The notes below the pieces were generated by a model, which saw only the letters and a program-made list of their open reading frames with translations, had not been told where the DNA came from and did not search any database. A stretch of DNA of 38,846 bases from an uncultured Gammaproteobacteria bacterium (GTDB lineage Bacteria > Patescibacteriota > Microgenomatia > Levybacterales > UBA12049): contig CAYWEP010000003.1 in NCBI GenBank assembly GCA_964457405.1, positions 3,036 through 41,881 on the forward strand, read 5' to 3'. The position numbers and the translations under genes were made by a program. Shown piece after piece: positions 1,317-24,401 of this stretch (positions are counted from its first letter, which is position 1; every line of letters starts with the position of its first letter).

Positions 1317-2273
1317 ATGAAAGTTGTTAAAAGAGTAACTGGTTATAAACAAGATCCTACTAGGTACCTTGATTTTGAAAGATTTCAGAAAGAATGTGGC
1401 AACTTTGTTTTAATAGAGGCGGCATTTGAAGAATCATCTCAGTGGAATGAATATAATTTTACGAAAGAAGAATTTAATAATATACAAAAACAAAAAATTG
1501 TCCGATTAGATTTTGCCCAACCCACCCTCTTTTTTGTTGGTGATAATCCTGATCATTATGATCATCAATTCTATAAAGTCTTTACCATATGCCCATATAC
1601 TGCCAAATGGCTTAATAACAAACACGATAACAAAAAATATGTTCCGATTTTTTTTCCGTACAACGAAAAATTAATTCCCAAAAGGCAAAAAAAGAAGTAT
1701 GATATCATATACGCTGGCCACATCCTCGCACCGGCAATACGTGAGTATGTTAACGTAATAAGTAAATTTAATTATCGTCTCATTTCTAATTCCAAAAATC
1801 CTCTGGTAACTAATCACGGTGCTTCGTACACAGAAAAAATGAACCTTATTGCTCAATCAAAAATAACTTTAGTTGCTAACGTACTTTATATAAGATACTA
1901 CCAACTTTTCTATATTTGGAAGATACAAAACTACAAAAATAATGAAGCGTTTAAACTCGTTCCTAAATGGTATCAAATTAACAAATGGCTGAACAAGGAG
2001 ATTTTAGTTCCACAATTGAAATCAAGACTCTTTGAAGCAGCATTCGGAAGATCTTTGATTCTTTGCAGAAGAGACCCTTTTAATATTGTAGAAAAGTATT
2101 TTGAACCAAGTAAGGAATTTGTTTATTTTGAACAGGATAAGTTAGTAGAAACTATTCAGCGTATTCTCGCGAACTTTAAATCATACGAAAAGGTTATTGA
2201 TAGAGCCCATAAAAAAGCGATGAATAACTACACCACTAAAAAATTTGTTGAAAACTATTTAAAGAAAATATAG
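1317..2273 (+). CDS. Putative GT-B glycosyltransferase (CgeB/Glyco_trans_1_2-like C-terminal domain)
   Basis: YDIIYAG, IAQSKITL, KSRLFEAAFGRSLIL, YFEPSKEFVYF and the C-terminal NYT helix are typical of CgeB/YkvP-like GTs. Confidence 0.65.
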   Translation: MKVVKRVTGYKQDPTRYLDFERFQKECGNFVLIEAAFEESSQWNEYNFTKEEFNNIQKQKIVRLDFAQPTLFFVGDNPDHYDHQFYKVFTICPYTAKWLNNKHDNKKYVPIFFPYNEKLIPKRQKKKYDIIYAGHILAPAIREYVNVISKFNYRLISNSKNPLVTNHGASYTEKMNLIAQSKITLVANVLYIRYYQLFYIWKIQNYKNNEAFKLVPKWYQINKWLNKEILVPQLKSRLFEAAFGRSLILCRRDPFNIVEKYFEPSKEFVYFEQDKLVETIQRILANFKSYEKVIDRAHKKAMNNYTTKKFVENYLKKI

Positions 2274-2275
2274 CT

Positions 2276-3250
2276 TTGAAAAAGTTTATAGTAATCACAA
2301 CCATCTTTTCACCGACTGAAGCTGTAAAAAAATTTGCAAAGCATAAGGATTGGCAATTAATTGTTGTAGGAGACAGAAAGACACCTCATGGCTGGAAATT
2401 AAACAGTGCAACTTATTTATCTCCCAATCAACAGATGCGTCTTTTTCCAAAGCTGGCAAAAGATTTGCCCTGGGACTCGTACAGCAGAAAAAACATTGGC
2501 TATCTTTATGCCATAAGAGAAGGCGCAGATATCATTGTTGATACTGATGATGACAACATTCCTTATGACGACTGGGGTAAAAATGTTACTTTTGAAGGTG
2601 AATTTAAAACTATAGTAAGTAACGGATTTGTAAATGTTTATAAATATTTTACAGATGAATTTGTTTGGCCAAGAGGGTACCCACTGAACAAATTGCTTGA
2701 AAAGAAAAAAGTGAGAATTGAGATAAAAAAACAAAAGATAGGAATTTGGCAGTTTCTAGCAGATGAAGAACCCGATGTGGACGCGATCTACAGATTGACT
2801 ATAAATAAGAAGATTAGTTTTGCAAAAAACTCCCCCCTAGTTCTAGGAGAAAATGTTATTTGTCCAATCAATACTCAAAATACTTTTTTTACAAAAGAAC
2901 TTTTTCCTTTGTTATTTCTTCCACCATTTGTAAGCATTCGGTTTGTTGATATCCTAAAAGGATTTGTTGCTCAACCACTTATGTGGCAATTAGGATATCA
3001 TGCCGGGTTTGGCCCGGCTAGTGTTATGCAGAAACGCAACCCACATGACTATATGAAGGATTTTGAATTAGAAGTACCAATGTATGTTGATACAGAAAAA
3101 ACAGTTTTTACTACAATAAAGGCAATAAATCCAAAACAAACGTTAACTCAAAATTTATTAAATGTTTATCACCGCTTAAGCATTGAGAAGATTGTCTCAA
3201 AAAAAACAGTAGTTGCACTCAAAACATGGTTAAAAGAAATTAATTACTGA
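2276..3250 (+). CDS. STELLO-like (DUF288) GT-A glycosyltransferase, GT75-related
   Basis: IVITTI, LIVVGDRKTP, SYSRKNIGYLYAI, DTDDDN, WPRGYPL, PDVDAIYRL, PINTQNT and QKRNPHDYMKDFELE match the STELLO/DUF288 pattern. TTG start 2 nt after the upstream stop. Confidence 0.85.
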   Translation: MKKFIVITTIFSPTEAVKKFAKHKDWQLIVVGDRKTPHGWKLNSATYLSPNQQMRLFPKLAKDLPWDSYSRKNIGYLYAIREGADIIVDTDDDNIPYDDWGKNVTFEGEFKTIVSNGFVNVYKYFTDEFVWPRGYPLNKLLEKKKVRIEIKKQKIGIWQFLADEEPDVDAIYRLTINKKISFAKNSPLVLGENVICPINTQNTFFTKELFPLLFLPPFVSIRFVDILKGFVAQPLMWQLGYHAGFGPASVMQKRNPHDYMKDFELEVPMYVDTEKTVFTTIKAINPKQTLTQNLLNVYHRLSIEKIVSKKTVVALKTWLKEINY

Positions 3251-3261
3251 CAAGATTAATT

Positions 3262-4110
3262 TTACAGCAAGTTTTGTCTGTCAATTGAAGAATAGATATA
3301 TTTATTATAAAGCTTGTGGTCAAAGATATGCATGACAAAAACCATATCACTCCACGCTGATTTAACTGCTCTTTTATGAAACAAACCATTTATTTTGCAA
3401 ATTTTGCGCTTTTTAAATTTTTTATTCGAAGAAAAACTTTGTTTATTGAATTCGGAAATTGCCAGTAACTCTCCTCCATACTCGGAATGTATTTCTTCAT
3501 CAGTACCAATGACATCGTCAAAATAGCAAAAAATTCTTGGGAGCAATTTTGACTTCTCAGCTTCAAAAAGCAGAAATGCATCTTTTGTAGAAGTATAAAA
3601 ATCAAGATCAAAAGCAATAAACCCAATAGGGGCAATTTTCTTTTTTATAAATCTAGGAATTGTTGAAGAAACATCTCCTATTATTAATTGTGTTGAATTT
3701 TTAATCTTTTTACGAAGAGTTGGCGCATCCATTTTATAAAAACCTTTTTCCCAAATATATGGTAAATCTCTGTAGTCCAATGGAGCTGGTAAACCCGAAC
3801 CCATATCAAAGCCGTAGACATCAATTTCTACTCCAGTGATTCTGGAGATTTGTTCTGCATGTTTCTCAAGGTTAATTAAGCCATGTCCACCTGCAACTCC
3901 AAACTCCATAGTTGAAATTCTTCTTATCCCCAATTTTTTTGCCTCATTTGCTGCTTGCAGCAAGCAATACCCATAATATGTCCTATCTAAACCATCAATA
4001 TGTAACCTTAAAAGATAGAAGAAGGGAAAGGGAAATTTCCTGAGTAAATAAATGATTAAAAAAATAGGATTAGTAATACCGATAAGTATTTCCCTTGATG
4101 TAAAAGCCAT
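3262..4110 (-). CDS. TylF/MycF/NovP-like SAM-dependent O-methyltransferase-fold protein
   Basis: MEFGVAGG (motif I), VYGFDMGSGLP, FIAFDLDFYTST and YFDD resemble TylF-family motifs. Confidence 0.6.
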   Translation of the reverse strand: MAFTSREILIGITNPIFLIIYLLRKFPFPFFYLLRLHIDGLDRTYYGYCLLQAANEAKKLGIRRISTMEFGVAGGHGLINLEKHAEQISRITGVEIDVYGFDMGSGLPAPLDYRDLPYIWEKGFYKMDAPTLRKKIKNSTQLIIGDVSSTIPRFIKKKIAPIGFIAFDLDFYTSTKDAFLLFEAEKSKLLPRIFCYFDDVIGTDEEIHSEYGGELLAISEFNKQSFSSNKKFKKRKICKINGLFHKRAVKSAWSDMVFVMHIFDHKLYNKYIYSSIDRQNLL

Positions 4111-4183
4111 AAAATTACGACTGCATATTATAAATGAAATATATTAAATAGAATGCACTCACAGATAATATTTGCATGCTCAA

Positions 4184-5536
4184 TCATTCCTTATTTATAG
4201 TTTTTTTAAACTGTTCCACTATTTTACTTTTTTGGAAAACCTTGTTTTTTATCAGGTTGTTTCTTTCTAATGGGTCTTTCGATAAAAGATAATATTCTTC
4301 TATTTCTCCATCTTCCTCTACTATGTATTTTTCTTTCGGAGTAGTAAAACTCCAAAGATTTTTATAACCACGAATTTCTGTTTCGTTGTCCAAAATACCC
4401 AGGTGTACATTAGGACTTAAGCACTTGTAGAGGATACGAGAAAGACTATTAATTGGCGAGAAAATCCTATCAGATATTAAATTATTTCCTTCAAATTGTG
4501 ACACTTTTATTCCTGCAATGGAGGAAATTGTTTTCGCAATACTTACCAATGATACTGCTTGAGTTACGATCTTTGATTTTGCTGAAGGTAGATTAATGAT
4601 AAGAGGTATATGGATTAATTCATTATACAAAGATAGCGCCCCATGCCCAACCACACCATGCTCCATGAATGCCTCACCGTGATCCGATGCCACTATGAAT
4701 ACAGTATTGGGGTACTTGTATTTTAAGAAATTTATGATTTTTCCGATATATTCATCAGTATTCTTTACAGAACTTCTATAGGCCTCGCGAAAAATTTCAG
4801 TTATTTTTTTATTTTTAGTTTTCATTATTCTTAAGCTTGTAGTAAGTTCTTTATAAAATATGACTTTATTTATAATTCTTTGAATAGGATTTTTATTCTG
4901 GAAAAAATGTCTGTTCAATCCACCAAAGTAAGGAAGATGGTTATCCATATAATGAAGCCATAAGAAAAATGGTTTCTTGTCTTTATTGTTAAAAAAATTA
5001 ATTACCTTTTTATTGAGTTTATGACCAGGTACTGAATGCTCGGGAGATAGAAAAATAGCTTTTATGAAGGTACGAATAATTTCTAGCACGCTGAGTAAAT
5101 TTTCGGGAGTTTTTTCTCGAAGTTTCATTAAAAACTCTTGTGAAGAAAGATACACTTTGCTTACATTTTCATACCCGTCATCATATGTATCAAACCCTCT
5201 CTCATAGCCATAAATGGAATATAATGCAGGACTGTCTGCAAGAAATGCAGTTGTACTGTAACCATTGTCTCGTAATATCTCCGCCAGGGTTTTTATTTCT
5301 TTATTGTTAGGAATACCGAGGTAATTTCCATAAGTAAAAGGAAGGGTACCCGTCATTATCGAACAATAACAAAAGAATGTGGGATTAGCTGGAGAAATTG
5401 CATTAGTAAACACATATGAATCTTGAGCAAAAGAATCTAAAAAGGGTGTATTTTTTTCATTCTTGTTATAATAACCTACAAAATCTGCTCGCAGAGAGTC
5501 AATAGTAACAAGAACAATATTTGGCTTTTCTTTCAT
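4184..5536 (-). CDS. Sulfatase/alkaline-phosphatase-superfamily protein with a non-canonical (Thr) nucleophile motif
   Basis: PNIVLVTIDSLRAD, SIMTG, TLAEILRDNGYST, KPFFLWLHYMDNHLPY, SDHGE, LYNELIHIPLII, DPLERNNL. Start set at ATG 5536 (MKEKPNIV); the track's extension to 5767 overlaps the divergent gene. Confidence 0.85.
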   Translation of the reverse strand: MKEKPNIVLVTIDSLRADFVGYYNKNEKNTPFLDSFAQDSYVFTNAISPANPTFFCYCSIMTGTLPFTYGNYLGIPNNKEIKTLAEILRDNGYSTTAFLADSPALYSIYGYERGFDTYDDGYENVSKVYLSSQEFLMKLREKTPENLLSVLEIIRTFIKAIFLSPEHSVPGHKLNKKVINFFNNKDKKPFFLWLHYMDNHLPYFGGLNRHFFQNKNPIQRIINKVIFYKELTTSLRIMKTKNKKITEIFREAYRSSVKNTDEYIGKIINFLKYKYPNTVFIVASDHGEAFMEHGVVGHGALSLYNELIHIPLIINLPSAKSKIVTQAVSLVSIAKTISSIAGIKVSQFEGNNLISDRIFSPINSLSRILYKCLSPNVHLGILDNETEIRGYKNLWSFTTPKEKYIVEEDGEIEEYYLLSKDPLERNNLIKNKVFQKSKIVEQFKKTINKE

Positions 5537-5577
5537 AAATGTTTCGTTTCTGCTTATTATTGCACAAAAAGAAAAAA

Positions 5578-5606
5578 TTGACCATAGGAGGAATTTAGTG
5601 TATGAT
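5578..5606 (+). promoter_or_regulatory. sigma70-type promoter for the 5618 gene
   Basis: TTGACC (5578-5583), N17, TATGAT (5601-5606), 11 nt before ATG 5618. Confidence 0.55.
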
Positions 5607-5617
5607 TTACCCATATT

Positions 5618-6319
5618 ATGAAAACAAAAACTGAACAAAAAAAATATATCTCTCTTGAGGGCAAAGTTACTCATAGTAAAAAAATCCTTCGAAAAGCATA
5701 CGAGAAACATGGCGATCAAATGGCAATTTTCTGGACGGGGGGTAAAGATTCCACAGTGCTCCTTCATATGGTAAGGGAAGTATTTGGATCAGACAGAAAA
5801 TTTCCAATACTCTATCTTGATACACAACTCGATTTTAAAGAAGTTTACGATTTTATTGAAAGATTGAAGAAGGAGTGGAATCTTAAGCTCATTACAATAA
5901 AAACAACAGATGAACATATGAAAAAATATGAATCGCTTAAGACAAAGAAAGAACGAGTAGAACTTGCTAGTATTTTTAAAATTATTCTATTAAAAGAAGC
6001 GGTAAAAAAGTATAATTTACCGGCACTTGTGATCGGGATTCGATGGGATGAGCATTCTGAGCGAATTGCGGAAAAATATTTTTCCCCGAGAGATGATCAC
6101 ATGCGAATACATCCGCTACTCCATTTCACAGAAAAAGATATTTGGAAGTATATAAAAGAAAACAAAGTGCCCTATATTTCCTTGTACGATAAAGGCTATA
6201 GATCTCTTGGTGAAAAAGAATTTACTAACCCAGCGACACCTGATGGTGGAGAAAGATCGGGAAGACAAAAAGAGAGAGAAGTTATAATGAAGAGACTAAG
6301 AGACTTGGGTTATTTTTAA
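5618..6319 (+). CDS. PAPS-reductase/CysD-family PP-loop protein, cysteine-free (probable adenylyltransferase such as CysD-like ATP sulfurylase)
   Basis: WTGGKDS PP-loop, LDT, GIRWDEHSER, RIHPLLHFTEKDIW, GYRSLG, ERSGR, C-terminal LRDLGYF. The protein has no Cys. Confidence 0.8.
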   Translation: MKTKTEQKKYISLEGKVTHSKKILRKAYEKHGDQMAIFWTGGKDSTVLLHMVREVFGSDRKFPILYLDTQLDFKEVYDFIERLKKEWNLKLITIKTTDEHMKKYESLKTKKERVELASIFKIILLKEAVKKYNLPALVIGIRWDEHSERIAEKYFSPRDDHMRIHPLLHFTEKDIWKYIKENKVPYISLYDKGYRSLGEKEFTNPATPDGGERSGRQKEREVIMKRLRDLGYF

Positions 6320-6333
6320 TAATCTCCTTATGT

Positions 6334-7218
6334 ATGAACGATAAACCTCAGTATGTTTTTCTGTTTGACGTTAACCACACCCTCATTAATACAGCGCTTT
6401 ATCACACAAAAGCACTCCTAGAAATAGAGAAGAATCTTTCAAAATATATTGATTTAACTGCTGCGCGATATATTACTAGACGTTTTGATGAAATTTTTCT
6501 TCTTATGGTTGCGGGATTTTTATTTAGAACTGTGGATGAATGGAAAAAAATTCCTGGAAGAAGAAAATCTTACGAAAGGCTTGTTGATCTCATTACAGAA
6601 CATCAAGTAAAAGTAAAAGGAGAATGGGGATTTATTAAAAAATGGAGCAGAGAAGTGTTCCTCAAGATTGCTGCTGATGAGATAAAAGCTATTCTATCAC
6701 CAGAGGTTATTCAAAATACGGCAACGATATATTGGGATACTATTACCAATCTTACTGAACCATTTGATGAGGCAAAAAAATTGCATGATTATTTAACGGA
6801 CAAAGGATACCATATATATCTACTTACAAGCAGCGATGGGAGATTACAAATTAAAAAAGGGTTTTTTACCTATGATCCTTTATTCTCAGGGACTTATAAA
6901 AAAAATAGAATGATTACACTCAAAAAAAAGGGACTTCATTTTAGAGATGTTATAGTTGGTGATCCACATGATAAACCTTTTCCCGATTATTACAAACGTG
7001 CGATTGAGATTGTAAGTAACGACTTAAAGAAAGAAATACAAAATAAAAATCTCATAATTGTCGGCAATTCTTTGGAAGATGATTTAGAAACTCCTAATAT
7101 TCTCCTTGGATTTGGTACTGGATTCCTTTTTAAAAAAGGAACATCATCTAAAAGAATTCATGAAAACATATTTGAAATTGGAAACCTTATGGAAGTCGTA
7201 TCAATAATGAAAATATAG
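6334..7218 (+). CDS. HAD-superfamily hydrolase, divergent
   Basis: Motif I FLFDVNHTL, motif II LLTSSD, motif III DKP, motif IV IVGNSLEDDL. Confidence 0.65.
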   Translation: MNDKPQYVFLFDVNHTLINTALYHTKALLEIEKNLSKYIDLTAARYITRRFDEIFLLMVAGFLFRTVDEWKKIPGRRKSYERLVDLITEHQVKVKGEWGFIKKWSREVFLKIAADEIKAILSPEVIQNTATIYWDTITNLTEPFDEAKKLHDYLTDKGYHIYLLTSSDGRLQIKKGFFTYDPLFSGTYKKNRMITLKKKGLHFRDVIVGDPHDKPFPDYYKRAIEIVSNDLKKEIQNKNLIIVGNSLEDDLETPNILLGFGTGFLFKKGTSSKRIHENIFEIGNLMEVVSIMKI

Positions 7219-7248
7219 TCCGCTATATTATCTAAGTTATAACACAAA

Positions 7249-8430
7249 GTGAACCTCAATAAAAAAATTAATGTAGCAATGATATCTCATTTCGCTTTTA
7301 AGGATATGGGAGAAGGCGCAGTATTTCCACAAAACATTCGGAATTTTCTTTTAAAAAAAATAGGAAAACTAACGTATATTGATCACCCTTTTCCTTTGTC
7401 TAATTTTCCTGCCTCTCAGATTACAATATACCAAAATGGAGTAAAAACTTATCAATTAACTTCTCTAAAGCTAGAGATGCCTACATTAATTTTGTTTACC
7501 TATCAATTTTTTTTAACAATTTTTTTTCTCATTAGGAAACCAATTATATACGACCTCTCTATCGCATGTGATAATCTATCCATAATCTCTGTTTATATAC
7601 TAAGAAAAATAGGCTTTATAAAAACTCTTGTTTATTATACCGTAGACTATTCGCCAAAAAGATACAGTAATATTTTCCTCAACTATTTATATCAACGCAT
7701 GGATAGACTCGCATGTATGATTTCTGATATGAATTGGGTCACCGTTGAAGACATGATAACTGCAAAAGTACAAAATGGACTCGATCGAAAAAAATGCGCT
7801 CCTTTTGCAGTCGTGCCAATTGGTTTTAATAAAGAAGAGATTGTTAATAAACCTACAAATAATGCAGGTAGATTTAATTTATTCTTCGTAGGAGTTTTGT
7901 ATGAGAAACAAGGATTACAATTAGTTATTAACGCTATGCCAGAGATAATAAGAATGTTTCCTCATGTTAAACTCATAATAGTAGGATCTGGCCCATTTGA
8001 AAAGCAGATTAAACAATTAGTCGAGCGTTTGGAACTTAAATCTTATGTTACATTTACTGGTTACATCAATGACCACAAAAAGATAGTATCAATTCTAACC
8101 AAAAACGGCGGAATAGGTTTAGCAACATACAATCCTACCATTGGAGATTTTACCTATTATGCTGATCCGAGTAAAATTAAGCTGTATCTTCTTTGTGGTC
8201 TGCCCATCATAACTACCAAAGTACCACCAATTGCCAAAGTTATAGAGAAAAAAAAAGCGGGACTTATCATTAATTATTCGGAAAAGGATCTAATACATGC
8301 TTTAGAGTCTTTACTTCAAGAAGAAAAAACATATTATTTATATAGAAATAATGCTTTGAAAATAGCAGAAGGTTATGATGATAACCTCATTTTAGAAAAA
8401 GCATTTAATAAACTTCCTAGTAATTTCTAA
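7249..8430 (+). CDS. GT4-like (GT-B) glycosyltransferase
   Basis: FFVGVLYEKQG, IIVGSGP, VTFTGY, ADPSKIKLYLLCGLPIITT. GTG start. Confidence 0.85.
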   Translation: MNLNKKINVAMISHFAFKDMGEGAVFPQNIRNFLLKKIGKLTYIDHPFPLSNFPASQITIYQNGVKTYQLTSLKLEMPTLILFTYQFFLTIFFLIRKPIIYDLSIACDNLSIISVYILRKIGFIKTLVYYTVDYSPKRYSNIFLNYLYQRMDRLACMISDMNWVTVEDMITAKVQNGLDRKKCAPFAVVPIGFNKEEIVNKPTNNAGRFNLFFVGVLYEKQGLQLVINAMPEIIRMFPHVKLIIVGSGPFEKQIKQLVERLELKSYVTFTGYINDHKKIVSILTKNGGIGLATYNPTIGDFTYYADPSKIKLYLLCGLPIITTKVPPIAKVIEKKKAGLIINYSEKDLIHALESLLQEEKTYYLYRNNALKIAEGYDDNLILEKAFNKLPSNF

Positions 8431-18738: not shown

Positions 18739-19416
18739 TTATTTGAAGGGAACTGCTTTATTTTCATTAACTCCACGTGGATTTTTGTCGTGATGACTTT
18801 TAACTTTTGCAAGCCAGGAAGCAATCATATGATTTAAAACCAATTGAATATCCTCAATTGGACCGTAATGATTGCTATTGACAAGTACTGGATAATGAAC
18901 CATACTCCCAAGCTTCCCTCCTGTCTTAAATCCTAAAAAACCAATTGTTATTGCACCTGAGGCTCTTGCATACTCTACAGCTTTTACCACATTGGGACTA
19001 TTGCCGCTTCCAGAAATTGCGATAACCACATCTCCAGTCTCGATTAAATTTCTTAATTGCTGCACAAAAATATCGTCAAAGCTTAAATCATTTGCAAATG
19101 CAGTTATCAAGGCGACATTATCGGAGAGAGAAATTACCCGAAAACGCCTTTCAGTATTATCATAAATTCGCTGTAGAGTACCTTTACTCAGATCGCATGC
19201 CATATGAGAAGCAGTCGAGGCACCTCCGCCATTACCTAAAATAAATACCTTTCTGTCTTTCTTATATGCATCAACCAAAACATCAATAACCATTTCGATT
19301 TTTGTTTTGTCCAAAGATACAATACATCTGGTCAACTCCACGAGGTAGCTATCAATAAAACTACTTGGATCAAGCTTTGCACTTTTTGTTTTTTTAATAT
19401 TGACAGAATTTTTCAT
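18739..19416 (-). CDS. gmhA: Sedoheptulose-7-phosphate isomerase (SIS domain)
   Basis: GNGGGASTASH, ITAFAND, GDVVIAISGSGNSPNV, IEDIQLVLNH; adjacent to hddA. Confidence 0.88.
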   Translation of the reverse strand: MKNSVNIKKTKSAKLDPSSFIDSYLVELTRCIVSLDKTKIEMVIDVLVDAYKKDRKVFILGNGGGASTASHMACDLSKGTLQRIYDNTERRFRVISLSDNVALITAFANDLSFDDIFVQQLRNLIETGDVVIAISGSGNSPNVVKAVEYARASGAITIGFLGFKTGGKLGSMVHYPVLVNSNHYGPIEDIQLVLNHMIASWLAKVKSHHDKNPRGVNENKAVPFK

Positions 19417-20396
19417 TAATCTATAAAGATAATTTTACTACCCTGTGGCTCAAATGCAAATTCCTGATAAATAAGACCAGGTAGGGATTTAATAATTTTT
19501 TCGTGTTTGTCCTCTGGAGCATAGAACAATAAAAATCCACCGCCTCCCGCACCTAAAAGTTTTCCTCCAATTGCTCCATTTTTTAAAGCTGTCTTATACC
19601 ATATGTCAATTTGCTGATTTGATACTCCTTCTACCATTTGAGTTTTTAATACCCAGTTTTCATGGAGCATTTCTCCAAAGGTATTAAGATTGTTTTTATT
19701 GAGTGCTTTTTTCATTTCTTTAGCAATTGTCACCATCCTAGCCATTATTTCCCTCTTTTTTCCCTTTTTCGCCATGATATTTTTTTGTTTTTTTAAAATA
19801 GAGTCAGCAGATCTCGTGATACCAGTATAAAAAAGGAGAAGACGTTTTTCTAATGTTTTCTTTGTGGCTGTTTTGCAAATAATTGGATCTACATACACTG
19901 TTTCGTTTGGATTAAACTGCATATACTGGAAACCCCCATACGCTGCTGCGTATTGATCTTGCTTGCCTATAGGTTTTTTTAATATTTCTATTTCTATTTT
20001 ACATGCTTCTTTTGCTAATTTTTGGGCATTCACTTGTTTTCCTTGATACGCATACAATGCGTTTAAAAGTCCTACGATATATGAGCTTGAGGAACCCATT
20101 CCCGTTCCCCCAGAAGGAATATCAGCTATTCCTGCGATATGGATTCCTCCTTTTATACCAGTTAACCTCATCGCTTCTCTAGCTAAATTATTTTCTATAT
20201 CCGACACCCTTGTAACTACTTCTGTCTTTGAATAATTAACCAAAATTCTTCCATCGAATTGTCTATTAACCGCTAAATATACATATTTGTTAAGAGTTGT
20301 TGATACCACAGCACCCGTATGATGTTTATAAAAGGAAGATATATCACTTCCTCCTCCGACAAAACTTATACGCAATGGTGTTCTTGAAATAATCAT
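19416..20396 (-). CDS. hddA: D-glycero-alpha-D-manno-heptose-7-phosphate kinase (GHMP family)
   Basis: MIISRTPLRISFVGGGSD, GTGMGSSS, GKQDQYAAAYGG, GGKLLGAGGGGFLL. Confidence 0.9.
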   Translation of the reverse strand: MIISRTPLRISFVGGGSDISSFYKHHTGAVVSTTLNKYVYLAVNRQFDGRILVNYSKTEVVTRVSDIENNLAREAMRLTGIKGGIHIAGIADIPSGGTGMGSSSSYIVGLLNALYAYQGKQVNAQKLAKEACKIEIEILKKPIGKQDQYAAAYGGFQYMQFNPNETVYVDPIICKTATKKTLEKRLLLFYTGITRSADSILKKQKNIMAKKGKKREIMARMVTIAKEMKKALNKNNLNTFGEMLHENWVLKTQMVEGVSNQQIDIWYKTALKNGAIGGKLLGAGGGGFLLFYAPEDKHEKIIKSLPGLIYQEFAFEPQGSKIIFID

Positions 20397-21586
20397 AAGT
20401 GCTTTTCAACAATGGAGTATAGATTCTCTTTCTTGTTTACCAGGAATGTTTTTACTCCAGCTGTGGTAGCAGCCATCATATCACGCTCATCGTCTCCTAT
20501 GCAATAACTCTCGAATAAGTTAATATGATGTTTTGTAGCGGCTTGGAAAAACATACCTGGGTTTGGTTTCCGACAGAAACAATTATCCTCTGTTGCGTGT
20601 GTACAAACAAATATATCATCGAACGTGACTCCAATCTTTCTTAATTCTAATTGCATGTTTTTATGAATATCTTCTAAGGTTTTTTTTGTCATTTTTCCGT
20701 GTGCAACTCCAGCTTGATTTGTAATAACAAACATTTTATATCCTTTCTGTTGTGCCAGCTGCAATGCCTCTTTTACTTTTGGTAAAAAAACAAAATCTTT
20801 CCATTTTATTATATATTCATGCTCCTGTGCGTTTTTATTTATGACTCCGTCACGATCAAGAAAAAGAATCTTTTTCTTCCTAAAATATTCTTCCATCATC
20901 GGTACACGGTCTCTGGTTGTTAAAAAGTAGTAAGGATAATCAGTTCTATAACCTGCTAGTTGACTTTTTGAGATGAGAAGAGGTAATAATTCTTTTTCAA
21001 AAGAAAAGTTGTTATATGGCATGAAATTAACTATTGATTTATCCAGTATAAAAAAACCGATATCAGTGGCATTGAGGTTTCTGGCAGACCGTTTCCTGTC
21101 ATATGCTTGAATAATACCGTTTGAATCTACAAATATATTATTCTCAAATCCATACTCTGCAAAACCATATCGATTGTTATAAACAGTAACCATTGCTAGA
21201 ACATCTTTCGAGAGATAAAAGGAGAACATCTTATCAAGTTGAAGAGGCCAATAGTTGTCAGAGTATAGTAAAAGAAATTTTTTTCTAAGAAAGTGCTTTG
21301 CTCTTCTTATTCTCGTTCCTGTTTCATCTTCTACAGGAGAATGAGAATATTTTATTTTCAGCCCCCACCTACGACCATCGTGTAAGTACTGTTCAATTTG
21401 CTTGTGCAAGTAGCCTGTCAATATGACTACCTCTTCAATATCATTCTTTTTTAACATCTCTATAAGATGCTCGAGAAAGGGCTTCCCATGAATCTCTACC
21501 ATCGGCTTTGGTTTTGTTAACGTAAGAGGAAGTAATCGTTTACCTTTACCACCAGCTAAAATGACTGCCTGTTTTATGAGGCTCAT
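20393..21586 (-). CDS. Fused heptose-1-phosphate nucleotidyltransferase (HddC-like) and heptose-1,7-bisphosphate phosphatase (GmhB)
   Basis: N-terminal ILAGGKGKRL.PLT..PKPM nucleotidyltransferase motif; C-terminal FLDRDGVIN, ITNQAG, CTH...CFCRKPNPGM, IGDDERD. Confidence 0.9.
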   Translation of the reverse strand: MSLIKQAVILAGGKGKRLLPLTLTKPKPMVEIHGKPFLEHLIEMLKKNDIEEVVILTGYLHKQIEQYLHDGRRWGLKIKYSHSPVEDETGTRIRRAKHFLRKKFLLLYSDNYWPLQLDKMFSFYLSKDVLAMVTVYNNRYGFAEYGFENNIFVDSNGIIQAYDRKRSARNLNATDIGFFILDKSIVNFMPYNNFSFEKELLPLLISKSQLAGYRTDYPYYFLTTRDRVPMMEEYFRKKKILFLDRDGVINKNAQEHEYIIKWKDFVFLPKVKEALQLAQQKGYKMFVITNQAGVAHGKMTKKTLEDIHKNMQLELRKIGVTFDDIFVCTHATEDNCFCRKPNPGMFFQAATKHHINLFESYCIGDDERDMMAATTAGVKTFLVNKKENLYSIVEKHL

Positions 21587-22583: not shown

Positions 22584-24401
22584 CTATTCTCTATCTGCTG
22601 TCACTTTACGCAGAGCATTCTGTATGTCTGTCTCGTTTTTAGGATCGACCAAAACAAATAATTTCGCTAAATTAATCCACTCATCTCTTGTCATATTTCG
22701 TTTCTTACGATAAATAAACAAGGTACTCTTATCAAAGGGTATAGAAATTTTCTTTACAAGTACATATGCTTGGGGCAAGGATCTATGTGTTAACCTGAGT
22801 ACATCGTTAAATCTTCTAACAAGATACATGTCAGAATCATAAAGATCATGTTCTCCTTCTTTATATTGATCAATTATACCATTTTTCACCAAAACATAAT
22901 CTGCAGATTGCAGTTTTTTAAAAACCGTGTCGTAGGATTTTTCTCCCCGTATAGCAGCAACGACTCCAATACCACGCTCTTGATATCCAAGAATTGTGTG
23001 AAATCCATTAGAAATCTGAGGCATTTCATACGCTGGCGTATAAATAAATGGCTTACTACTTTTCCAGTCTTCCTTTATAGCGTTGATTATCGATATTACA
23101 TTTCCTTCCTCTGGACGCGGTGGCCAGACCATAGGAGTAAGATAGATTCTTCGCGGATGATGAATAAATGAGGGTAAGACAATATCTTTTAATCCCTGTT
23201 TACCCATAGGCCCAAGTCCCCAGCTCGAAGCAATAAAATTTAGTGAGCCTAGAATTAAGATTGCACTCGATAGTAATATGCTTAACTTTTTATAGCCAGC
23301 GTGTTGTATAACAACAGCTGAGATCAGTGCCATAACTGGATAAATAGGTACTATTAATCGATCTGTTTTCCACACACTTCCGAACGTAAAGAAAGCATAG
23401 GGAACAATAAAAGCAAGCAAAAAAAATGCATATCGTTTGATAAAGATAAGGCAAATCAAAAACCCAGCTACAAATAGTAACCAGAAAAAAATAGTCTGCT
23501 GGGATAGAACATTGAGATAAAACATGACTGAACGAATGGAAAAAACATTGGCAAGCTCAGGCATTCCAAGAAATTCTGTTACCCAAGATGCGCCATTCGA
23601 TGTGTTCGCAGTAATATATGCTTTAAACGGCAGAAGATTTGGTAAATAGTACAGAACTATACTGGGAAGAATTGCGAACATAAAAAAAATGCCGGTGTTG
23701 AAAAACAATGTTTTACGTTTTTTAGGTTCTCTTATGAAAGCATTTATCCCAACTAACGCAACGAGAATCGCTGGACCTACGACAAAAATGGGAACAACCC
23801 ATCGCGTTAAACTACCTAGAAAAAGAAAGATCGAAAAGAGTATTGTGTATTTCGTATTCATAAAACTTTTCGATTTTGCAAGAAATAGTAAAGACATAAC
23901 CACAAACGCTGTTGCAGCCGTTTCAGTGTACGTAAAATGGAGATAAAAAAGAGGAAATCCATAAAAAGCAAAAATAACAGATGCAAGTAAACCTGCTTTT
24001 TTGCTTAAAAATTCTTTTCCTAAGAAATATACGCCTACAATAGTTATGAGATAAAAAAGGACATTTATCCATAAAGCTATCTTGTAGGCATGCAGTGTGC
24101 CGGTAAATAGAAAAGCAATTGCTAGTACAAAACTATATAGTGGTTGCCTATATTTATAAACTTCTAGGAGTTCTAATTGTTTTTCTACTTTAAGCTCTTT
24201 AAATACATCATAATATAAGGTAGCCATCTCCATATATTGATGCTCATCTGTACCTCCTTCAGGATATTGATGGGTTTTCGTTACATATAATGAATGACTT
24301 ACAAATATGACAACACATAGAATTGCTAATGTGTATACCTCCCAATGCCTCATTATCTGAAGATAAAGCCGAGGAATTAAAAAACGCAAGTTTCTTGCCA
24401 T
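22584..24401 (-). CDS. GT-C fold integral membrane glycosyltransferase (ArnT/PMT_2, GT39/GT83-like)
   Basis: Many hydrophobic helices, early DE motif (GTDEHQY), RQPLY, YTET, DRLIVPIYP and a soluble C-terminal domain. Confidence 0.8.
   Translation of the reverse strand: MARNLRFLIPRLYLQIMRHWEVYTLAILCVVIFVSHSLYVTKTHQYPEGGTDEHQYMEMATLYYDVFKELKVEKQLELLEVYKYRQPLYSFVLAIAFLFTGTLHAYKIALWINVLFYLITIVGVYFLGKEFLSKKAGLLASVIFAFYGFPLFYLHFTYTETAATAFVVMSLLFLAKSKSFMNTKYTILFSIFLFLGSLTRWVVPIFVVGPAILVALVGINAFIREPKKRKTLFFNTGIFFMFAILPSIVLYYLPNLLPFKAYITANTSNGASWVTEFLGMPELANVFSIRSVMFYLNVLSQQTIFFWLLFVAGFLICLIFIKRYAFFLLAFIVPYAFFTFGSVWKTDRLIVPIYPVMALISAVVIQHAGYKKLSILLSSAILILGSLNFIASSWGLGPMGKQGLKDIVLPSFIHHPRRIYLTPMVWPPRPEEGNVISIINAIKEDWKSSKPFIYTPAYEMPQISNGFHTILGYQERGIGVVAAIRGEKSYDTVFKKLQSADYVLVKNGIIDQYKEGEHDLYDSDMYLVRRFNDVLRLTHRSLPQAYVLVKKISIPFDKSTLFIYRKKRNMTRDEWINLAKLFVLVDPKNETDIQNALRKVTADRE

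Follow-up and report, generated by a model that had tools for sequence, protein, structure and literature searches.

A Thr-type sulfatase-fold protein and a short CysD-like protein as a candidate PAPS-free glycan sulfation module in Patescibacteria

Three neighboring genes in a glycan locus of a member of the Patescibacteria encode what may be a module for glycan sulfation that dispenses with 3'-phosphoadenosine 5'-phosphosulfate (PAPS). The genes lie in a stretch of 38,846 nucleotides (the window; G000:C3:3036-41881) from an assembly, G000, of 1.24 Mb in 115 contigs with a GC content of ~33%; this assembly is 83% complete, a caveat that applies to every gene absence that we report for the genome. 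The first gene (4184..5536, minus strand) encodes a Thr-type protein of 450 residues with the sulfatase fold of the alkaline phosphatase (AP) superfamily (PF00884, E = 3.1e-39, 135.5 bits), a candidate sulfuryl transferase. Beyond a divergent spacer of 81 bp read directly from the sequence (5537..5617) follow, on the plus strand, the gene for a short, cysteine-free CysD-like PP-loop protein of 233 residues (5618..6319; PF01507, PAPS_reduct, E = 4.3e-40), a candidate GTPase-independent sulfate adenylyltransferase, and the gene for a variant HAD-fold protein of 294 residues (6334..7218), a candidate accessory recognized by its model fold and its DVNHT and GNSLEDD motifs. All three genes were found where an earlier reading of the DNA (the original prediction) had placed them, and the head-to-head arrangement of the first two that it described holds with a start of the sulfatase-fold gene at 5536. 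Judging from the sequences, we lean slightly toward the view that the trio is a PAPS-free glycan sulfation module, in which the CysD-like protein would make adenosine 5'-phosphosulfate (APS) and the Thr-type enzyme would transfer its sulfuryl group. The strongest single result is the finding of two proteins in which the CysD-like and sulfatase-fold domains are fused.

Adjacency and fusion of CysD-like and AP superfamily genes

Loci containing CysD or CysD-like genes were gathered from public genome contigs (9 loci), from sampled Patescibacteria genomes (12 loci) and from metagenomes, where we took the best 80 of 560 confirmed relatives. Open reading frames (ORFs) were called in 91 loci, consisting of the window, the 80 metagenome loci, the Levybacteria locus L007 and 9 Patescibacteria loci, and the neighboring ORFs were classified by phmmer against seeds drawn from the same loci, with Pfam checks on subsets. 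In nine of the 91 loci the ORF filter left no CysD ORF, and these were not counted. The counted rows comprise 54 canonical CysD proteins and 28 short CysN-less proteins (82 loci), the short-type count leaving out two CysH-like rows and one 942-residue protein with a weak PAPS_reduct match. Among the 54 canonical rows, CysN was found within three ORFs in 40, an AP superfamily neighbor in 30 and a TauE-family gene in 10, HAD genes not being counted for these rows. The 28 short-type rows had neither CysN nor TauE neighbors, and 16 of them had an AP superfamily partner within three ORFs (the two fusions included) and 4 a HAD. These AP superfamily neighbors are NPP-type proteins of ~230 or 420-680 residues, or are sulfatase-type. 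As an internal control, AP superfamily members made up 47 of the 357 ORFs within three positions of the CysD(-like) gene versus 7 of the 293 ORFs lying further off in the same loci.

Both fusions come from metagenome contigs. The first (L049:105-2180) is a protein of 691 residues with Sulfatase, SGSH_C and PAPS_reduct domains, and the second (L053:5378-7666) has 762 residues with Sulfatase, DUF4214 and PAPS_reduct domains; in the C-terminal CysD-like domain, the two share 52% and 42% identity, respectively, with the window's protein. Both have threonine at the nucleophile position, as do all other full-length CysD-linked sulfatase-fold proteins that we aligned. Adjoining the fusion gene of L053 is a plus-strand gene (1772-4600) for a 942-residue protein with a GT2 glycosyltransferase domain (3.3e-29) and weak matches to Sulfotransfer_3 (1.3e-4) and PAPS_reduct (8e-5). 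In L007, the closest genome relative, an NPP-type AP superfamily enzyme, a HAD protein (61% identical to that of the window) and a CysD-like protein (76% identical) are encoded in this order on one strand, and the AP-fold partner can therefore be of either subfamily.

Indirect evidence of linkage also came from database hits that share the same longest-contig value, such as P0006, P0122 and P0184 (14,581 bp) or P0009, P0139 and P0204 (34,790 bp); matched in this way there are 12 CysD-like/HAD pairs. Clustering of 230 unclassified neighbors for a further recurrent partner turned up nothing beyond common glycan genes and ORFs specific to a lineage. Recurrent adjacency and the two fusions support a functional link between the CysD-like protein and the Thr enzyme of the AP superfamily. 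The co-occurrence of all three families in glycan loci, on which the original prediction turned, was thus borne out by adjacency and fusion for the sulfatase-fold and CysD-like proteins, and did not extend to the HAD beyond a narrow lineage.

The CysD-like and sulfatase-fold proteins

The best solved relative of the CysD-like protein is CysD of 1zun (E = 3.1e-19), ahead of FAD synthase and of APS and PAPS reductases, and the curated models likewise rank it nearest to CysD (129 bits) and then to CysH (114 bits), with both scores below the cut-offs of the models. The PP-loop, W-T-G-G-K-D-S-T, is an intact SxGxDS motif in which Gly-42, Asp-44 and Ser-45 are invariant and Lys-43 is nearly so across 21 sequences, and the CysD-type C-terminal tail (ERSGR..KE..IM.RLR.LGYF) is kept. 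The translation contains no cysteine, and the catalytic C-terminal cysteine of CysH (in ECGLH) is missing; a CysH-type reductase mechanism is therefore excluded. Compared with the CysD-CysN complex (1zun), the window's protein has the same PAPS_reductase/PP-loop fold, the PP-loop itself and the ER.GR...LGY tail, and canonical CysD-CysN pairs have AP-fold neighbors as well. It differs from CysN-linked CysD in its length of 233 residues, versus mostly 265-271 in the related loci, in its freedom from cysteine, in an insertion that it does not have and in the absence of a detected CysN.

At E <= 1e-10, the family counts 970 proteins among 1,764 scored candidates, most of them of 216-240 residues, and its hosts are Patescibacteria together with one record each from Altiarchaeales and Pseudomonadales. 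A maximum-likelihood tree of 93 rows, built by a quick search and with support from the Shimodaira-Hasegawa-like approximate likelihood ratio test (SH-aLRT) only, places the CysN-linked CysDs in one clade (54 rows, support 98) and the short CysN-less proteins as a grade below it, the two CysH-like ECGLH proteins falling outside both. The window's protein belongs to a clade of 7 rows with Levybacteria-type sequences (support 100).

A mundane explanation for the trio would be that its members are unrelated neighbors: the PP-loop protein would be a housekeeping enzyme such as a FAD synthetase, the sulfatase-fold protein an esterase that trims glycans by hydrolysis, and the HAD a phosphatase of sugar phosphates. 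The divergent transcription of the sulfatase-fold and CysD-like genes would suit such a view, as would the best structural match of the HAD, the sugar-phosphate phosphatase NANP, and the failure to find a RibF-type FAD synthetase in G000. Human FAD synthase (8rom) does match the CysD-like protein at 1.9e-14, over residues 134-202 only, and the surrounding genes are those of glycan and sulfate metabolism. The CysD-like gene is sporadic, with a match at E <= 1e-10 in 14 of the 401 genomes sampled from the phylum, and RibF occurs in 17 of the 401, none of which carries the CysD-like gene; these figures argue that the CysD-like protein is not the general FAD synthetase of the phylum. Because RibF is so rare there, the RibF searches are uninformative on the FAD synthetase idea itself. 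Against chance neighborhood stand also the fusions, the enriched adjacency and the fact that only the Asn variant of the HAD accompanies the CysD-like gene, and we regard this explanation as very unlikely.

The Pfam match of the 4184-5536 product assigns it to the sulfatase/alkaline phosphatase-like fold. Its score against the arylsulfatase equivalog model is 110 bits, versus a cut-off of 481. As the original prediction had proposed, the nucleophile position is occupied by threonine, since Thr-53 aligns in HMMER alignments with the formylglycine cysteine of 6hr5 and with the serine of 2qzu. The surrounding residues, T-F-F-C-Y, depart from the formylglycine motif C/S-x-P/A-x-R (C-x-x-x-R in 6hr5 and S-S-P-A-R in 2qzu), with tyrosine in the place of the motif arginine, and the column of the sulfate-binding lysine is filled by His-298 (in G-H-G, after S-D-H-G-E). 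Across 31 aligned homologues, Thr-53, His-200, Asp-285-His-286-Gly-287 and His-298 do not vary. Confidence in the AlphaFold model is high (mean predicted local distance difference test score, pLDDT, 91.6), and its best Foldseek matches are the phosphonate monoester hydrolase 4uph and S1 sulfatases, not LtaS or EptA, with E values of 5.5e-22 to ~4e-18 and template modeling (TM) scores of ~0.6-0.69 among the matches listed.

The open frame of the gene continues as far as 5767, and a 476-residue call in the protein database (P0170) starts from a methionine at 5614, which would shrink the spacer to 3 bp. Either of these longer starts would add a hydrophobic N terminus, and we rejected them: the nearest homologues have 449-455 residues and begin at the methionine equivalent to 5536 (for example P0171, 82% identical and 450 residues long), as do CysD-linked sulfatase-fold relatives from other loci. 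With the start at 5536, the protein is therefore cytoplasmic, having no signal peptide or membrane segment, and the spacer measures 81 bp. Some homologues (P0222, P0234, P0215 and L099:385-1833) end in ...E(K/R)..I..RL..LGY(I/L), a tail of the kind found in the CysD-like proteins (6250-6319 in the window); this terminal motif common to both partner families could be a shared docking peptide.

The same genome provides a control. The canonical C-C-P-S-R motif and DDQRxD, along with a hydrophobic anchor at the N terminus, occur in three other sulfatases (two on C87 and one on C43), and (S/G)DNG...K is present in two of the three and in a fragment on C107; the window's sulfatase-fold protein has none of these features. 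The canonical Cys-type genes number three or four, all outside the window (C87:2035-3654, C87:3694-4134, C43:7216-8769 and C107:2175-2909), and those whose N terminus is present carry hydrophobic anchors. Sulfatases of this kind, once exported, could supply the module with sulfate released from glycans of a host or of the environment. The formylglycine-generating enzyme (FGE, PF03781) was not found in the genome; the anaerobic sulfatase-maturating enzyme (anSME) was not searched for.

The threonine nucleophile and the DHGE...GH motif are typical of members of the superfamily that transfer phosphoryl groups, which raises the question of whether a phospho-group rather than sulfate is involved. 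The PP-loop enzyme would then make an adenylated phospho-compound, the AP-fold enzyme would transfer a phospho-substituent and the HAD would trim phosphate. In keeping with this are weak EptA/MCR matches at residues 234-343, the NPP-type partner in L007, the match of the C-terminal half of the PP-loop protein to human FAD synthase and the phosphatase fold of the HAD, which suits phosphate chemistry. LtaS and EptA (MCR) resemble the window's protein in their Thr nucleophile and DHGE...H metal site, and they are transferases, not hydrolases. They have an N-terminal multi-span membrane domain, act outside the cytoplasm and use lipid donors, none of which applies to the window's protein, whose homologues begin with the catalytic domain, and EptA models reach at most 25 bits on it against cut-offs of at least 500 (25 versus 561). 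The structural matches to sulfatases and phosphonate monoester hydrolases, the occurrence of the same AP-fold families beside genuine CysD-CysN pairs, TauE genes and APS kinases, and the sulfation of glycans by haloarchaeal sulfatase-like proteins speak further against phospho-transfer, which we consider quite improbable.

Sulfate activation, the donor and the proposed reaction

The partner families of the AP superfamily also adjoin, in related loci, genuine CysD-CysN pairs and TauE-family anion transporters. CysD-CysN pairs are not known to serve any purpose but sulfate activation. Through these pairs, TauE and occasional APS kinase neighbors of the same partner families, a tie of the module to sulfate is supported. 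The original prediction had remarked that the window lacks cysN, cysC and a PAPS-type sulfotransferase; none was present among the ORFs scanned, and the absence extends to the 83%-complete genome, where searches for cysC, cysN, sat, sulfotransferases and FGE found none. Specifically, no APS kinase, Sat-type ATP sulfurylase or Sulfotransfer_1/3 protein was found in G000, which has a single PAPS_reduct gene. APS kinase is also missing from 27 of the 28 loci in which CysD, CysN and an AP superfamily enzyme occur together, and of nine sampled Patescibacteria genomes with a CysD match at E < 1e-26 only one (G250) has a strong APS kinase match. The pairing, here and in many uncultured bacteria, and the occasional fusion of such enzymes with a CysD relative, usually with no APS kinase nearby, point to APS as the donor.

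The reaction that we propose would begin with the short CysD-like PP-loop enzyme, which, without the CysN GTPase, would convert ATP and sulfate to APS and pyrophosphate. The cytoplasmic sulfatase-fold protein, of an enzyme class with in vivo precedent in haloarchaea, would then take the sulfuryl group from APS and pass it to a hydroxyl of a sugar or lipid-linked glycan made by the surrounding locus. Its active site would comprise Thr-53 in the place of formylglycine and the His-rich DHGE...GH metal site, with a sulfo-threonine as the likely intermediate. In a speculative third step, the Asn-variant HAD, drawn from a housekeeping phosphatase family, might handle a phosphoanhydride by-product or intermediate.

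A number of observations weigh against this PAPS-free scheme, beginning with the fact that we infer every catalytic step from the genes. APS formation is strongly uphill unless it is coupled to GTP or pulled by a downstream reaction, and tblastn with two CysN proteins gave only matches of 24-34% on C58 and C35, as expected of translation GTPases. The CysD-like protein does not have the ~25-residue insertion of CysN-linked CysD, and its scores are lower than the curated CysD models require (129 bits versus 195 for PRK05253, 96.9 versus 396.6 for TIGR02039 and 93 versus 413 for PRK12563). No SulP sulfate permease was found in G000, and its TauE-family gene lies elsewhere, on C17. The T-F-F-C-Y of the window's sulfatase-fold protein departs from the T-x-P-S-(H/F) of most other CysD-linked sulfatase-fold proteins, its gene and the CysD-like gene are divergent and not co-transcribed, and no AP partner lies within three ORFs of the CysD-like gene in 12 of the 28 short-type rows, several of which are on short contigs. 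Three of the four HAD-linked rows carry identical CysD-like proteins and are not independent. Finally, in 3 of the 28 short-type loci a genuine APS kinase (L050 and L054) or, in L052, a Sat-APS kinase fusion does lie close by, and in L050 and L052 it is next to the short CysD-like gene. In these loci sulfate activation may therefore not fall to the short protein alone, and PAPS may be the donor there.

These kinases bear most directly on the idea that the module does sulfate a glycan, with PAPS or APS supplied by Sat- or CysC-type enzymes or by a host, and that the short CysD-like protein is not the activator; the PP-loop protein might instead bind a nucleotide donor for the AP-fold enzyme, for example, or re-adenylate a by-product. 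The Sat-APS kinase fusion of L052 (PF01747, 2.5e-80; PF01583, 6.3e-56), which adjoins both the short CysD-like gene and an NPP-type gene, and the kinases near the short genes of L050 and L054 fit this idea, as do the general cost of free APS synthesis without a GTPase and the many sampled Patescibacteria with strong APS kinase matches and no CysD. Set against it, the PP-loop motif that marks cleavage of ATP between the alpha and beta phosphates is intact and nearly invariant, neither Sat nor APS kinase was found in the window's genome, most loci with CysD-CysN and an AP enzyme are without a kinase, and the short proteins branch with CysD, the activating subunit, not with CysH. We hold a non-activating CysD-like protein to be unlikely. 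The donor may differ between lineages.

About a dozen of the sampled Patescibacteria genomes have strong APS kinase matches (for example G205:C1:176429-176872 and G041:C4:12461-12904), several of which lie in open frames of ~550-670 residues that suggest Sat-kinase or CysN-kinase fusions. Most of the genomes with an APS kinase are without the CysD-like gene; classical PAPS synthesis therefore also exists in the phylum.

In a more ambitious version of the PAPS-free scheme, the module would be a self-contained sulfation machine, independent of both PAPS and a GTPase. The CysD-like and Thr-type AP-fold enzymes would act as one unit, as the fused relatives suggest, APS would be made and used inside the complex with the sulfuryl group passing through a covalent sulfo-threonine, and in the Levybacteria-type lineage a housekeeping HAD phosphatase, deprived of its general acid and of one metal ligand by two Asp-to-Asn changes, would have joined as a third component to provide the thermodynamic pull that otherwise comes from CysN or APS kinase. 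That all of these parts hold together is rather doubtful; if they did, the same donor logic would explain the haloarchaeal proteins Agl7, Agl30 and Agl31.

The usual explanation for sulfated surface glycans invokes PAPS and Rossmann-like sulfotransferases, the classical pathway running through ATP sulfurylase, APS kinase and a PAPS-dependent sulfotransferase, as in NodPQ/NodH. The proposed module shares with this pathway the activation of sulfate and its placement on carbohydrate. It differs in that no APS kinase or Sulfotransfer_1/3 protein was found in G000 and in that the candidate transferase is of another fold, with a probably covalent Thr mechanism.

Closer parallels come from haloarchaea. 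The original prediction had cited a sulfatase-annotated protein, Agl7, as implicated in glycan sulfation, and this proved correct: in PMC3892788, Haloferax volcanii Agl7 (HVO_2046) is annotated as an N-acetylgalactosamine-4-sulfatase, and its deletion leaves a non-sulfated dolichol-phosphate-linked glycan. According to a 2025 paper (PMC11980604), deletions show that the sulfatase-like Agl30 (VNG1056C) and Agl31 (VNG1057C) sulfate the N-glycan of Halobacterium salinarum, and when expressed in Haloferax the two proteins sulfate a Haloferax glycan; the terms PAPS, APS, CysD, donor and threonine do not appear in its text. All three are sulfatase-like proteins of the AP superfamily, are encoded in glycosylation clusters and are needed for the addition, not the removal, of sulfate. 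Agl31 is soluble like the window's sulfatase-fold protein, and S1 sulfatases are structural neighbors of both (PMC11980604). The Agl proteins are archaeal and act on dolichol-linked N-glycans with no donor named in the papers, whereas the window's protein comes from Patescibacteria and is paired with a CysD-like activator candidate, to which its counterparts in relatives are fused in two cases. A further point that tempers the PAPS-free scheme is that this likeness is drawn from the published descriptions of the Agl proteins.

The claim of a sulfation route without a classical sulfotransferase therefore stands in part. The links of the CysD-like protein to the AP enzyme and of the module to sulfate are supported, and the route is not wholly new, given Agl30 and Agl31. 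The class of sulfatase-like glycan sulfation enzymes is already known from haloarchaea; the apparent novelty lies in the pairing with a CysD relative that stands alone, in the fusions, in the bacterial setting within the candidate phyla radiation (CPR) and in the altered HAD. We found no paper linking CysD or APS to AP superfamily sulfotransferases in the open-access and bioRxiv literature. The haloarchaeal work of 2013 and 2025 establishes that sulfatase-like proteins add sulfate in vivo and names neither donor nor mechanism, and the two or three proteins described here form a concrete set for testing the donor. If the PAPS-free scheme is true, it would amount to a second, widespread enzymology of biological sulfation, would change the annotation of "sulfatase" genes in the glycan loci of microbes with minimal genomes and may offer PAPS-free biocatalysts.

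The HAD protein and the surrounding locus

The HAD protein (6334..7218) is weak by sequence, scoring 22.6 bits on PF00702 against a cut-off of 26.4, and its fold is confident in the model (pLDDT 94.5), with a Rossmann-like core and cap. Foldseek gave NANP/HDHD4 as the best match (E = 3.2e-11), followed by HAD subfamily IA proteins and dehalogenases, and a protein atlas returned only generic HAD clusters. The atypical character that the original prediction ascribed to it was confirmed. In place of the phosphatase motif I, DxDxT with a general acid/base at Asp+2, it has D-V-N-H-T (Asp+2 to Asn), and in motif IV, GNSLEDD, the first Asp is likewise replaced by Asn. Asp-12, Thr-165, Lys-214 and Asp-250, which by the pattern of the HAD motifs would include the nucleophile Asp, the Thr/Ser of motif II and the Lys of motif III, are invariant in the family alignment.

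The family is tiny, with 49 proteins at E <= 1e-5 in a database of 5.8 billion sequences, and it divides into a close subgroup (40-77% identical) with D-V-N-H-T and G-N-S and a distant subgroup with D-I-D-D-T and G-D-S. In the 401-genome class sample 15 genomes have a member, and the sole Asn-variant genome among them (G758) has the HAD beside the CysD-like gene, on a contig equal in length to the L007 record. The Asn variant adjoins the CysD-like gene in the window and, with the two genes in the opposite order, in L007/L141. The canonical DIDDT/GDS relatives, in six genomes, have no CysD-like or AP superfamily gene within ~9 kb, and Pfam scans around five of the six revealed housekeeping neighborhoods, for instance FtsW and MurG, or inositol monophosphatases. 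The HAD therefore looks like a recruited, altered copy; it is a narrow, lineage-specific addition that belongs to the trio only in the Levybacteria-type lineage. A complex prediction for the CysD-like protein and the HAD, with scores of 0.00 and 0.01 against a mark of 0.32, is informative neither way. We considered the HAD as a missing pyrophosphatase and rejected the idea: although a family I pyrophosphatase was not found in G000, a membrane H+-pyrophosphatase is present, and need does not argue for the idea.

According to Pfam scans of 38 ORFs, the glycan locus spans the whole window. It contains glycosyltransferases of the GT1, GT2, GT4 and GT10 types, methyltransferases, epimerases, dehydratases, a DegT aminotransferase, heptose-pathway genes and a Wzx-type flippase. 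The spacer between the divergent genes has sigma-70-like hexamers on both strands, TTGACC-17-TATGAT on the plus strand (5578-5606, 10 of 12 matches) and TGGTCA-17-AATAAT on the minus strand (5584-5556, 9 of 12 matches). Promoter-like sites in 4000-7400 are not above shuffles (10 found versus 16.1 expected), so that the spacer hexamers are weak evidence. The -10 element of the plus-strand site ends 11 nt before the ATG at 5618, and the CysD-like mRNA may therefore be nearly leaderless. The sole AGGAGG of the spacer (5586-5591) lies 26 nt before that ATG and 7 nt before a GTG at 5599, which starts a frame of 7 codons whose TGA stop overlaps the ATG at 5618 (ATGA).

Downstream of the sulfatase-fold gene, at a distance of 73 bp and on the same strand, is an ORF of 282 residues (3262-4110, minus strand) for which neither Pfam nor NCBIfam gave a match. 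In the protein atlas it groups with TylF-related class I S-adenosylmethionine (SAM)-dependent methyltransferases (score 0.99), its sole match in the PDB is CalS11 (E = 0.2), and it is probably a sugar O-methyltransferase. Further along on the minus strand (18739-21586), genes for a SIS-domain protein, a GHMP kinase and an NTP-transferase-HAD fusion stand in a row that resembles the pathway for nucleotide-activated heptose. In the middle of the glycan locus, the 605-residue ORF at 22584-24401 (minus strand) matches no Pfam family at E <= 1e-5.

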